The translations under genes and the position numbers were made by a program. The notes below the pieces were generated by a model. That model saw nothing but the letters and a program-made list of their open reading frames with translations, searched no databases and was not told the origin of the DNA. Positions 33,200 through 60,913 of a stretch of 64,000 bases of DNA are shown in pieces; position 1 is the first letter of the stretch, and the number at the start of each line of letters is the position of its first letter. This DNA is from an uncultured Clostridia bacterium (GTDB lineage Bacteria > Bacillota > Clostridia > TANB77 > CAG-508): positions 48,460-112,459 of the forward strand of contig CAKPOF010000003.1 of the NCBI GenBank assembly GCA_934169725.1, written 5' to 3'.

Positions 33200-34183
33200 A
33201 TGGAAGAACAAATAGATATTTTAATGGCAACATATAACAGTAATATAGAATATTTAAAGAAACAAATAGAAAGTATACTAAATCAAACATATAAAAATAT
33301 AAAGTTAATAATAAGTGATGACAATTCAACAAATAAAGAAGTTCAAGAAGAATTAAAAAAATACCAAATAAAAGATAAAAGAATTGATTTATATATCCAA
33401 GAAAAAAATTTAGGATATACAAAAAATTTTGGCTTTTTGTTAGAAAAATCTACAGCAAAATATATTATGTTTTCAGACCATGATGACATATGGTATGAAA
33501 ACAAAGTGCAAAAAAGCTTAGAAAAGTTGAAAAAAGAAAATGTTGACCTTATATATGTCAATTCAAATCAAATAAATGAAAAAGGTGAAAAGATTCAAGA
33601 GAATTATTTTAAATATAAAAATGTGCCTTTAATAAATAAAGAAAGTAAATTGGCAATATCAAGATGTGCGGGTATAGGATGTTCGCAAATATTTACTGAA
33701 AGTGTAAAAGAAAAAATGATACCATTTAAAGACAGTGTTATGGCACATGATTGGTTAGCTGGATTTATTGCTAATGAGTTGAAAGGTCTTACATATATAG
33801 AAGAACCATTATTTGGATATAGACTTCATAATACAAATGTATTTGGAGGAAGAAGTTTTTCGCAAAATATAGATAGATGGAAAAAAGAAAATGGAAATAG
33901 TTATAGATCATATCTAAAATATAGAAAAGAAAAAGTTATAGATAAAGCATATTTAGATGGTGCGAAAATGTGTAATGAATATAGATTGGAAGATAAAAAT
34001 AAAAAGTTTATAGATGATTTAGTTAGTTATTTGGAAAATATAGAAAAATCTAAATATGTTAATTGGCATTTGACAAAATATTTTAAATTTTTTGCTGGAA
34101 AAAACTTATTAAAAAAAATGATAAAAGAAATTATGATTTTTCATTTTCCAATATTGGGTTATATAGTTTTCAAATATCAATAA
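33200..34183 (+). CDS. Family 2 glycosyltransferase (rhamnosyltransferase-like).
   Basis: DILMATYNSNIEYLKKQIESILNQTYKNIKLIISDDNS, with DxD (SDHDD). Confidence 0.75.
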   Translation: MEEQIDILMATYNSNIEYLKKQIESILNQTYKNIKLIISDDNSTNKEVQEELKKYQIKDKRIDLYIQEKNLGYTKNFGFLLEKSTAKYIMFSDHDDIWYENKVQKSLEKLKKENVDLIYVNSNQINEKGEKIQENYFKYKNVPLINKESKLAISRCAGIGCSQIFTESVKEKMIPFKDSVMAHDWLAGFIANELKGLTYIEEPLFGYRLHNTNVFGGRSFSQNIDRWKKENGNSYRSYLKYRKEKVIDKAYLDGAKMCNEYRLEDKNKKFIDDLVSYLENIEKSKYVNWHLTKYFKFFAGKNLLKKMIKEIMIFHFPILGYIVFKYQ

Positions 34184-34266
34184 TAGAGCTACTTTGGATT
34201 GACAAATATAAATTTTAAATATAGAATGAAAAAAACAAAAAGCAATTAACAAATGTAGGTGAGTAA

Positions 34267-35256
34267 ATGGAAGAACAAATAGATGTATTAATGGCAACAT
34301 ATAATGGAGAAAAATATTTAAAAGAACAGATAGAAAGTGTATTAAATCAAACATATAAAAATATAAGGCTGGTAATTTCAGATGATTGTTCTAAAGATGG
34401 AACAATAAATATTTTAAAACAATATGAAAATGATAAAAGAATAGAAGTACATTATCATGAAAAAAACCAGGGATATATAAAAAATTTTGAATATTTATTA
34501 AAGCAAGTAAAAAATAACATATACATGTTATCAGACCAAGATGATGTATGGATGCCTGAAAAAATAACAAAATCATATGAAAAATTAATAAAAAATGACG
34601 CTGATATGGTTTTTGCTGATTTAGAGGTTGTTGATGAAAATTTAAAAACAATATATCCATCATTCAACAAATTCATGTTATTAGATAGAAAAATAAATAA
34701 ATATATAAATAGTTACAAGCTAAATTATTTATATAATTGCATAACAGGATGTACTTTAATGTCAAAATCAAAATGGATAAAGGATATTTTGCCAATACCA
34801 ACAGATTCTAAATATTTAATTCATGATCATTGGATAGGAATAATAGTGTCATTAAATGGTAAAATAGTGTACATGCCTGAAAAATATATAAAATATAGAC
34901 AACATGGAAATAACCAAGTGGGAACAGAAAAAATTTCGCATGGATTTAAAAAACTTGAACAGGTAAGAAAATTATTTATAAATGTAAAACTTGGAGTTTT
35001 TGGAACATATGTAAAACATAATGAAAAATTTCCAAGTGAACTTCAAAAATTAAATAGGGAAGCTTTGGAATATTTTAAAATGTTAGAAAAGAAAAAAAAC
35101 TTTAATTTTAAAGGATGGAAAACATTTTATAAATTGTATAAAAATGAAACCACAAAATATTTTATAGAAAATTTCTTAATTTTGAATATGCCAAGAGTTG
35201 TAGAAATTCCGTTTGCAATTAGACATGTGATTTTAAAAATATTAGGAAAGAGATAA
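34267..35256 (+). CDS. Family 2 glycosyltransferase, a tandem paralog of the gene before it.
   Basis: Same N-terminus MEEQIDVLMATYNGEKYLKEQIESVLNQTYKNI...SDDCS, with DxD (SDQDD). Confidence 0.75.
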   Translation: MEEQIDVLMATYNGEKYLKEQIESVLNQTYKNIRLVISDDCSKDGTINILKQYENDKRIEVHYHEKNQGYIKNFEYLLKQVKNNIYMLSDQDDVWMPEKITKSYEKLIKNDADMVFADLEVVDENLKTIYPSFNKFMLLDRKINKYINSYKLNYLYNCITGCTLMSKSKWIKDILPIPTDSKYLIHDHWIGIIVSLNGKIVYMPEKYIKYRQHGNNQVGTEKISHGFKKLEQVRKLFINVKLGVFGTYVKHNEKFPSELQKLNREALEYFKMLEKKKNFNFKGWKTFYKLYKNETTKYFIENFLILNMPRVVEIPFAIRHVILKILGKR

Positions 35257-35272
35257 AATAGTATAAAAGGAA

Positions 35273-59474: not shown

Positions 59475-59513
59475 AAAATATAAGTACTATAGATTTTTAT
59501 ATTAGGAGATATT

Positions 59514-59939
59514 ATGGAAAAAATAAAAAAAATATTACAGAAGATATTAACCAAAGAAGTAATTTTATATATTGCATTTGGAGTGTTTACAACAATAGTG
59601 AATCTAGGTTCATTTTTTGTAATGAACACATTATTACATATGAACGAAAATTTATCTAATTTTATAGCTATAATACTTGCGGTATTGTTTGCATATATAA
59701 CTAACAAAGACTTAGTATTTCATTCTAAAGCTGAAAGTGCAAAAGAAAAAATAATGGAATTTTTAAAATTCATGCTTGGAAGGGCATTTACAATGGTGCT
59801 AGAATTTGTTGGTGGCTTAATATTATTTAAAACAGTAATACCCGCGATAATTAGTAAATGCTTTATAACAGTCATTGTTATTATATTAAATTTCTTTATT
59901 AGTAAATTTTTTGCATTTAAAACAAAAAATAAAGAGTAG
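59514..59939 (+). CDS. gtrA: GtrA-family small membrane protein (flippase-associated).
   Basis: 141 aa, 4 TM segments, paired with the GtrB-like GT2 downstream. Confidence 0.7.
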   Translation: MEKIKKILQKILTKEVILYIAFGVFTTIVNLGSFFVMNTLLHMNENLSNFIAIILAVLFAYITNKDLVFHSKAESAKEKIMEFLKFMLGRAFTMVLEFVGGLILFKTVIPAIISKCFITVIVIILNFFISKFFAFKTKNKE

Positions 59940-59956
59940 AAAGGAAGTAGTAGAAG

Positions 59957-60913
59957 ATGAAAAAAATAACAGTAATAATACCAGCATATAATGAAGAAGA
60001 ATCACTACCAATTTTATACGAAAGAATGGATAAACTAATGGAAAGTATGAAAAATTATGAATTTGAAATACTTTTTGTAAATGATGGAAGCAAAGATAAA
60101 ACAATAGAAATAATAAAACAAATGAGAGAAAAAGATAACAGAATAAGTTATGTAAATTTTTCTAGAAATTTTGGAAAAGAAATAGCTATGATAGCAGGCC
60201 TAGATTATGCAACAGGAGATTGTGTAATATTTATGGATGCTGATTTACAAGACCCACCAGAATTAATACCAGAATTAGTAAAATATTGGGAAGAAGGGTA
60301 TGACGATGTATATGCTAAAAGGCGTTCAAGAAAAGGAGAAACGTGGCTAAAAAAATTTACTTCAAAAATGTATTACAAAGTATTACAACATCTAACTAAA
60401 GTTGAAATCCAAAGAGATACAGGTGATTTTAGATTATTAGATAAAAGATGTGTAAATGCATTAAAAAAATTAAGAGAATCACAAAGAAATACAAAGAGTA
60501 TGTTTAGCTGGATTGGATATAAGAAAAAAGAAGTATTATATGATAGAGACCCTAGAGTAGCTGGAACAACAAAATGGAATTATATAAAATTAATGGATTT
60601 AGCAATAGATGGAATAACATCATTTACAACATCACCTTTAAGATTATCTACATTTATAGCAATACCAACATTTATTGTTTTAATTATATATTTTATATAT
60701 GTAATTATAAAAAGCTTCACTATACATGAAGCAATTCAAGCTTTTCAAGCTATTATATTGTTGATTTTATTTTTCTCAGCAATTCAAATATTATTATTTG
60801 GAATAGTGGGAGAATATTTAGGAAGAATATTTAATGAGACTAAAAATAGACCATTATATTTAGTAGATGAATATAATGGAAAGAAAGAAATGAATGAAGA
60901 TGTTGAAAAATAA
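59957..60913 (+). CDS. GtrB/CsbB-like GT2 undecaprenyl-phosphate glycosyltransferase with two C-terminal TM helices.
   Basis: ITVIIPAYNEEESLP...FVNDGSKDKT...DADLQDPPE, and the C-terminal TM pair. Confidence 0.8.
   Translation: MKKITVIIPAYNEEESLPILYERMDKLMESMKNYEFEILFVNDGSKDKTIEIIKQMREKDNRISYVNFSRNFGKEIAMIAGLDYATGDCVIFMDADLQDPPELIPELVKYWEEGYDDVYAKRRSRKGETWLKKFTSKMYYKVLQHLTKVEIQRDTGDFRLLDKRCVNALKKLRESQRNTKSMFSWIGYKKKEVLYDRDPRVAGTTKWNYIKLMDLAIDGITSFTTSPLRLSTFIAIPTFIVLIIYFIYVIIKSFTIHEAIQAFQAIILLILFFSAIQILLFGIVGEYLGRIFNETKNRPLYLVDEYNGKKEMNEDVEK

Follow-up and report, generated by a model that had tools for sequence, protein, structure and literature searches.

Gene content of the locus

We analysed a 64,000-nt stretch of DNA from an uncultured Clostridia bacterium (assembly GCA_934169725.1, contig CAKPOF010000003.1, positions 48,460 to 112,459; hereafter the window, numbered from its first letter), in which positions 33200-60913 carry 23 genes, all on the + strand, in DNA of ~25% GC. 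These genes very probably constitute a locus for a rhamnose-containing cell wall polysaccharide (Rha-CWPS) of the streptococcal, lactococcal and enterococcal type, and genes for secreted hydrolases bearing ChW repeats are embedded among them (Table 1). The locus itself is routine; the link between the ChW repeats and its polymer is the new and testable lead.

Table 1 Features of the locus in window coordinates (GT, glycosyltransferase; TM, transmembrane; ABC, ATP-binding cassette; dTDP, deoxythymidine diphosphate; aa, amino acids)
Position	Strand	Feature	Evidence
32940..32975	+	Intrinsic terminator of the upstream cotJABC operon	14-bp stem followed by T-run
33200..34183	+	GT2a, first of tandem paralogs	Pfam Glycos_transf_2 2.8e-26; N-terminus MEEQIDILMATYN
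34267..35256	+	GT2b, second of tandem paralogs	Pfam Glycos_transf_2 2.6e-30; N-terminus MEEQIDVLMATYN
35273..37057	+	Dual-domain GT2	Two GT2 stretches (Pfam)
37104..37889	+	ABC exporter ATPase, Wzt/TagH/RgpD-like	Pfam ABC_tran; 261 aa
37926..38702	+	ABC-2 exporter permease, Wzm/RgpC-like	Pfam ABC2_membrane 6.1e-21
38747..40903	+	Two-module GT4, 718 aa	Two Glycos_transf_1-type stretches
40990..42396	+	DUF2142 polytopic membrane protein, GT-C fold	
42500..43183	+	GacI/WpsA-like soluble GT2 (polyprenyl-phosphate sugar synthase)	Pfam GT2
43210..43548	+	DUF2304 small membrane protein, GacJ/WpsB counterpart	Pfam DUF2304 5.8e-22; ~3 TM segments
43560..44597	+	GT2c	Pfam GT2 2.3e-36
44615..45865	+	Wzx-like flippase (probable)	Polysacc_synt 23.5 bits; ~12 hydrophobic segments
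45862..46641	+	GT8 retaining glycosyltransferase	Pfam Glyco_transf_8 1.8e-42
46866..47852	+	GT2d	Pfam GT2 8.9e-38
48002..51811	+	Secreted ChW x12 (four triplets) + GH73 N-acetylglucosaminidase + SH3b	Pfam ChW 4.1e-183, SH3_3
51824..52678	+	Cadherin-like beta-sandwich protein	Pfam Cadherin-like 2.5e-15; signal peptide and C-terminal membrane anchor
52703..55039	+	Secreted ChW x6 (two triplets) + M14 zinc carboxypeptidase	Pfam ChW 7.9e-103, Peptidase_M14 9.1e-13
55041..55799	+	252-aa membrane-anchored protein	One N-terminal TM segment
55922..59404	+	rmlD, rmlA, rmlC, rmlB (dTDP-L-rhamnose pathway)	Order D-A-C-B
59514..59939	+	GtrA-family small flippase	Pfam GtrA_DPMS_TM 5.6e-19; ~4 TM segments
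59957..60913	+	GtrB-type polyprenyl-phosphate GT	TM segments 233-251 and 266-284 (C-terminal)

An original prediction, made without database searches, had counted 8 GT2 genes in the locus; Pfam gives 7 genes with 8 GT2 domains, and the open reading frame (ORF) at 55041 matches no family. The prediction had also named a tandem pair of GT2 genes whose products both begin MEEQID(I/V)LMATYN, and these N-termini were seen in two proteins of 39% identity. The dual-domain GT2, the GT8, the two-module GT4 and the DUF2142 protein that it listed were all recovered, as were the Wzm/Wzt exporter, the two polyprenyl-phosphate GT2 enzymes with a GtrA, and the three secreted proteins interleaved at 48002-55039, whose domains were confirmed by Pfam, NCBIfam and PDB matches. 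Its statement that rmlABCD closes the locus held as to the presence of all four genes and not as to their place, since they run in the order D-A-C-B and are followed by the GtrA and GtrB genes.

Proposed backbone and export genes

In a sequence search of the PDB, the dual-domain GT2 matched two-domain synthases (chondroitin synthase 2z87, 3.5e-19, and heparosan synthase), and it is conserved across related loci; we infer that it is the transferase that polymerises the backbone. The two-module GT4 gave no match in the PDB search and is strongly kept adjoining DUF2142 in relatives, including Saccharibacteria (866 bits). Matches of the locus GT4 and GT2 enzymes to the rhamnosyltransferase model TIGR01556 were weak, and donor specificity is not readable from their sequences.

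The exporter permease matched Wzm of Aquifex aeolicus (6OIH, 4.9e-30) and TarG (1.5e-16), and the ATPase scored 206-219 bits against NCBIfam TagH and 189 bits against galactan Wzt, all under the equivalog cut-offs. The window ATPase lacks a C-terminal carbohydrate-binding domain, whereas that of the related contig L094 has a Wzt_C domain, and chain-end recognition may therefore differ between the window locus and loci of the L094 type.

Proposed side-chain genes, rhamnose and Gtr genes

The GacI-like GT2, which has no TM segment, matched the NCBIfam models for PpgS, AglJ, dolichyl-P-hexose transferase and ArnC, and was paired with DUF2304 in every relative examined. The position of the Wzx-like gene adjoining this pair is likewise conserved in relatives, and because of this place and the ~12 hydrophobic segments of its product, the protein encoded at 44615 is probably a Wzx flippase. 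The DUF2142 protein has a GT-C fold.

The rhamnose genes gave strong Pfam matches (RmlD_sub_bind 1.4e-93, NTP_transferase 1.5e-74, dTDP_sugar_isom 1.1e-75), and RmlB scored 481.8 bits, over the cut-off, with the dTDP-glucose 4,6-dehydratase model TIGR01181. The GtrB protein matched Synechocystis GtrB (5EKP) at 8e-100 and ArnC at 5e-48, and reached 314.7 bits with NCBIfam PgfS, short of the cut-off of 500. The membrane topologies of the glycan proteins agree with their assigned roles.

Embedded secreted proteins

Two proteins encoded within the glycan locus carry tandem ChW (PF07538) repeats with a conserved GW motif, 12 in one and 6 in the other, and neither gave a Pfam match to SLH (S-layer homology) or CWB2 repeats. 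The larger protein has a signal peptide, and its GH73 domain matched an NCBIfam SagB-like glucosaminidase (1.8e-26) and PDB entry 6u0o (2.5e-20); its ORF opens with GTG at 47993, and the ribosome-binding site is better spaced for the ATG at 48002. Triplets of ChW repeats occupy residues 40-170, 294-424, 547-677 and 686-815 of this protein and residues 38-170 and 291-421 of the ChW-M14 protein. The PDB sequence search returned nothing for the ChW region or for the ChW-M14 protein.

Both proteins also contain a repeated domain of ~120 aa (YIDTP...GWK/GWI...IDG...NPxPGF...GxHI..I) after ChW triplets, at residues about 171-293 and 425-546 of the product of 48002-51811 and about 171-290 and 422-545 of that of 52703-55039. 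It lies between successive triplets and, in the ChW-M14 protein, also after the final triplet, ahead of the M14 domain, and it has no Pfam match. On contig L001, from the same species, the ChW-GH73 gene (16986-20922, against window 47993-51811) is split or shortened, with 942 aa called against 1272; barring an assembly error in L001, ChW repeat content or gene integrity would vary between strains.

The cadherin-like protein has a TM segment at each end, and a weak homolog occupies the same position in locus L144. No Pfam, NCBIfam or PDB match was found for the 252-aa protein, and its homologs lie directly 3' of ChW-M14 homologs in L099 (11664-12497), L117 (12178-12972), L132 (2874-3647) and L138 (8732-9568). 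Because the 252-aa gene follows the ChW-M14 gene in several different locus arrangements, these data suggest that the two proteins are a functional pair, in which the smaller might, for instance, regulate the peptidase or act as its partner.

Embedded ChW proteins of other lineages have GH25, Amidase_3, GH73 or YkuD L,D-transpeptidase domains; thus the ChW module is the constant feature of these proteins and the attached enzyme varies. Four Clostridium sp. loci encode a protein that combines ChW, a choline-binding-type repeat and YkuD (L040 633-2159, L048 3699-5219, L061 4322-5836, L077 229-1770; all on the - strand), and these genes are transcribed divergently from the glycan genes. Far from glycan loci, L091 8454-10708 encodes ChW repeats on an enzyme of the alpha-amylase/pullulanase type, and ChW therefore anchors nutrient-acquiring enzymes too, not lysins alone.

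The ChW triplet as a structural unit

ChW repeats were present in multiples of three (3, 6, 9 or 12) in 7/7 proteins examined, and repeats at the same position in different triplets resembled each other more (45.4%) than did repeats at different positions (39.9%). An AlphaFold2 model of one triplet was a compact all-beta unit (predicted local distance difference test 96.1; predicted template modelling score 0.90) for which no structural neighbour was found in the PDB. A library-wide profile search yielded 8,314 cluster representatives at 50% identity, with matches that usually cover a whole triplet; in a phage collection, the triplet matched 2 uncultured faecal phage records only. The triplet is thus the structural unit of ChW, and relative to SLH and CWB2 it is at most an analogue, not a family member.

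Linkage of ChW genes to glycan loci across genomes

The original prediction had proposed comparative genomics as a check on whether ChW genes are linked to this set of glycosyltransferases. We aligned DUF2142 proteins, which gave 79 loci from GTDB species representatives, fetched +/-10 kb around each, and searched them with a profile of the 18 ChW repeats encoded in the window. In 10 of the 79 loci, ChW ORFs lay no more than 10 kb from DUF2142, and each of 13 housekeeping markers taken from the window as a control was found in 0-2 of the 79. In the closest relative (L011, 74% DUF2142 identity), the ChW genes occupy the same place as those of the window. In the others, namely L015, L017 (Mordavella), L070 (Faecalimonas), the four Clostridium sp. 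loci above and the Saccharibacteria loci L050 and L080, their positions and orientations are different.

Starting from ChW instead, we picked eight ChW genes by a rule fixed before their contexts were seen, and 3/8 lie in clusters with GT2 + DUF2304, DUF2142 or Wzm/Wzt genes. A metagenome scan added 80 ChW-anchored loci, which dereplicated to 35 groups, 16 of them with at least 12 kb of sequence; at least two specific glycan markers were present in 8 of these 16 and any housekeeping marker in 0/16 (binomial P for 8/16 = 3e-7 at an assumed 5% background). One of the loci, L144, has the order Wzx, GT2, ChW x9, cadherin-like, rmlDACB, ChW x6, GtrA, GtrB, and in L117 the ChW-M14 gene and its 252-aa partner sit between the two tandem GT2 paralogs.

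Taken together, these results indicated a recurrent linkage of ChW genes to loci of this type, in relatives and in unrelated genomes alike, with a clean housekeeping control; the linkage is not universal, and we are confident that it is non-random. The original prediction had read the location of the ChW genes as a hint that the polymer of the locus is the ChW ligand, and had named as a refuting outcome that ChW proteins of related genomes would never be linked to this locus; that outcome was not observed. In Saccharibacteria, a ChW protein with an unannotated N-terminal domain is encoded beside the lineage's own dual-GT4/DUF2142/rml/Wzm-Wzt locus (L050 1-1227, L080 2430-3896). ChW and this glycan locus type therefore occur in an epibiotic lineage of the Candidate Phyla Radiation.

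Boundaries and genomic setting

Upstream of the locus lie cotJA, cotJB and cotJC, whose strong terminator is the 5' boundary of the glycan locus, and downstream lies an unrelated ABC/FtsX fusion gene. A scan of the + strand from 33700 to 61300 found no convincing terminator inside the locus, and a promoter scan of this AT-rich DNA was uninformative (147 sites against 147.6 expected); the genes of the locus are putatively co-transcribed. Housekeeping genes (recA, rny, ymdB, ileS, fbp, spoIID and a sortase) make up the remainder of the window. Neither a priming transferase nor a LytR-CpsA-Psr (LCP) ligase was found in any ORF of the 64 kb.

A tyrosine integrase gene lies at 24779-26011 on the - strand, and GC skew and AT skew invert at about 24000-28000, which probably marks a small integrated element that has no connection with the glycan locus. 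On the metagenome contig L002, whose DUF2142 protein is identical to that of the window, cotJABC (window 31618-32912) is replaced by two genes for large serine recombinases (1-1678), which points to a mobile-element insertion or a rearrangement at the locus boundary.

A model for the polymer and its ChW proteins

Because the same parts stand together in the published Rha-CWPS model and Clostridia are known to make wall rhamnans, we take the locus to be of a known kind. The original prediction had presented it as a composite of an ABC exporter, a Wzx flippase and GtrAB; the parts are present, and their combination is not unusual, being the established Rha-CWPS plan. It had further suggested either two polymers or one polymer with side-chain decoration, assembled from dTDP-rhamnose. 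Decoration is supported, and two independent polymers were rejected as unnecessary, since one polymer with side chains suffices.

In the pathway that we propose, in a putative order of steps, RmlABCD would make dTDP-rhamnose, and cytoplasmic enzymes of the GT2 and GT4 families, among them the dual-domain GT2 and the dual GT4, would build the backbone on a lipid carrier with a primer supplied from elsewhere, after which Wzm/Wzt would carry it out. The GacI-like GT2 and its DUF2304 partner would begin, on undecaprenyl phosphate, the side chain that GT2c, GT8 and GT2d would lengthen; the Wzx-like protein would flip it over the membrane; and the GT-C-fold DUF2142 protein would graft it to the backbone at the outer face, as GacL/WpsJ do. 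GtrB and GtrA would provide a further lipid-linked monosaccharide for decoration. The ChW-GH73-SH3b, ChW-M14, cadherin-like and 252-aa proteins would be produced together with the polymer, and each ChW triplet would be a wall-anchoring module that recognises it, much as SLH triplets recognise secondary cell wall polymer (SCWP) and CWB2 triplets recognise polysaccharide II (PSII).

We give this explanation as a whole, a Rha-CWPS locus with embedded hydrolases anchored to its polymer by ChW, a probability of roughly 0.6. Its component claim that ChW binds the polymer made by this locus is drawn by analogy and held tentatively, at slightly less than even odds. The wider proposal would make ChW triplets a third, structurally new class of secondary-wall-polymer anchor, with the rhamnose-rich polysaccharide of GacIJ/Wzx/DUF2142/rml loci as ligand and with ChW-tagged peptidoglycan hydrolases kept in the locus from Clostridia to Saccharibacteria to hold each enzyme in step with its anchor polymer; this we consider possible and somewhat doubtful.

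Several points weigh against the explanation. On the glycan side, the Wzx flippase of the original prediction, which is borne out by topology and conserved position, scores under the Pfam cut-off of 28.2 bits and has no PDB sequence match, and the sugar specificities given to the transferases are putative. A dedicated GT-C partner (GtrC/CsdB-type) for GtrA/GtrB was not found in the locus or the rest of the window; this third component may be encoded elsewhere in the genome, or DUF2142 may serve both systems. Attachment of the polymer to the wall is assumed by analogy, because the window holds no LCP ligase or priming enzyme. On the ChW side, the case for binding is built on gene neighbourhood and is indirect. 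In two relatives that have the glycan genes (L012, 60% identity, and L013, 54%), the fetched stretch of +/-10 kb contained no ChW, and of the ChW genes sampled about half are located away from glycan genes. Such incomplete linkage is what would be expected of a general wall anchor. Because similarity to the window triplets set the ranking in both ChW-anchored samples, these are biased to one clade, and the background frequency of ChW genes per genome is an assumption.

Since the enzymes joined to ChW have peptidoglycan as their substrate, peptidoglycan itself could be the target of ChW. An unlikely but weighty alternative gives ChW peptidoglycan or some other general wall component as its ligand and holds that the hydrolase genes are in the locus through co-regulation of wall remodelling with polymer insertion, because peptidoglycan must be opened or trimmed where new polymer attaches. 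This would account for the fact that every catalytic domain on the embedded ChW modules (GH73, M14, GH25, Amidase_3, YkuD) acts on peptidoglycan, and it sits well with the review literature, in which the ChW ligand is listed as unknown and most ChW proteins are lysins. However, the ChW-GH73 protein already has an SH3b domain, described as peptidoglycan-binding, and ChW likely adds some other specificity; ChW also anchors the alpha-amylase, an enzyme that does not act on peptidoglycan, and a ChW-containing anchor on Lactococcus lactis was not recovered from the lysozyme/mutanolysin wall fraction. Co-regulation alone also leaves unexplained why ChW in particular is the module of these loci in lineages as far apart as Lachnospiraceae and Saccharibacteria.

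Two further readings are less likely than the binding of peptidoglycan, and we regard both as improbable. The ChW genes might be accessory cargo, functionally unrelated to the polymer, in a variable and recombination-prone part of the locus: L012 and L013 lack the ChW block, the block has a GC content of 0.29-0.30 against about 0.24, and the species shows variation in the number of repeats and in gene integrity (L001 against L002). Yet the association recurs in many lineages with differing positions, orientations and catalytic domains and is strongly enriched over the housekeeping controls, and a raised GC content is expected from repeats rich in G, W, Q and D. The locus might instead make a capsule or released exopolysaccharide and not a peptidoglycan-linked wall polysaccharide, as the lack of an LCP ligase gene in the window and the first isolation of Ruminococcus gnavus glucorhamnan from culture supernatant would allow. 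Mutanolysin, however, freed far more of that glucorhamnan from cells, which indicated linkage to peptidoglycan, and the gene set of the window matches Rha-CWPS loci; in L. lactis the ligase LcpA is a separately named enzyme (PMC9574508). A Wzx/Wzy-type capsule or exopolysaccharide locus was rejected as a candidate: no Wzy polymerase, Wzz/CpsCD (tyrosine-kinase) pair, or Bac_transf or WecA primer is present in the locus ORFs.

The preferred reading, in which ChW anchors the embedded hydrolases to the rhamnose-rich polymer, offers a specific and testable candidate for a wall ligand that the literature has recorded as unknown ever since the ChW domain was first reported in 2001. About 8,300 protein clusters contain ChW triplets, and many of these proteins are lysins and surface enzymes of gut Clostridia; such a ligand would account for the way in which these enzymes are placed on the cell and help to predict lysin specificity. 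It would also extend the rhamnose wall-polysaccharide model past ovococci to spore-forming Clostridia and Saccharibacteria.

Comparison with known systems

The window resembles the Rha-CWPS loci gac, rgp, cwps and epa in having rmlABCD, a Wzm/Wzt-type exporter pair, several GT2/GT4 enzymes with a dual-domain GT2, a complete four-component side-chain set (the GacI/GacJ-like pair, a Wzx-like flippase and a GT-C transferase) and an extra GtrA/GtrB decoration system. As in those loci, the priming enzyme and LCP ligase are not within the cluster; in streptococci, too, the genes for ligase and primer lie outside it. The host differs, being a spore-forming, low-GC gut Clostridium and not an ovococcus.

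According to a 2022 review (PMC9574508), the Rha-CWPS pathway comprises an ABC-exported rhamnan backbone and a four-component side-chain system of a GT-A (GacI/WpsA), an activator (GacJ/WpsB), Wzx and a GT-C (GacL/WpsJ). The same review describes a three-component system of a GtrB-like GT-A, a GtrA flippase and a GT-C, and in L. lactis a separately named LCP transferase (LcpA) for wall anchoring and a flippase, CflA, encoded apart from csdAB. Like the Gtr systems (GtrA/GtrB/GtrC; CsdA/CflA/CsdB), the window has adjacent GtrA and GtrB genes, the latter encoding C-terminal TM helices, and it differs in having no GT-C beside them. In Streptococcus thermophilus, rgp loci pair DUF2142 with a large GT of several domains and also encode WpsA/B homologs, Wzx and RgpCD (PMC9746298); the window GT-C is a DUF2142 protein, as in the Rgp1/6/7 loci of that species, and is set beside GacL/WpsJ by role only. 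Embedded secreted ChW hydrolases are a difference of the window, none having turned up in a term search of PMC9746298 and PMC9574508.

Among Clostridia, wall rhamnans are made as the glucorhamnan of R. gnavus and the clostrhamnan of C. saccharoperbutylacetonicum, both of which are wall-linked, bear glucose side chains and come from clusters that contain rml genes. The published R. gnavus model, compared with the window by description only, differs in being Wzx/Wzy-like with LCP genes inside the cluster, where one gene (RUMGNA_03512) is annotated just as bearing a carbohydrate-binding domain.

For the ChW proteins, the closest parallels are polymer anchors of other families. In Clostridioides difficile, three tandem CWB2 repeats bind PSII, and the PSII (AP) locus adjoins the cwp cluster, whose CWB2 proteins are anchored non-covalently and include glucosaminidases, transpeptidases and proteases (PMC4973711); SLH triplets with pyruvylated SCWP (csaB, Bacillus) are a second precedent (PMC4973711). 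As in the C. difficile cwp/PSII and SLH/SCWP systems, the window pairs genes for wall proteins with genes for a polymer, and the anchor repeats come in threes that form one unit.

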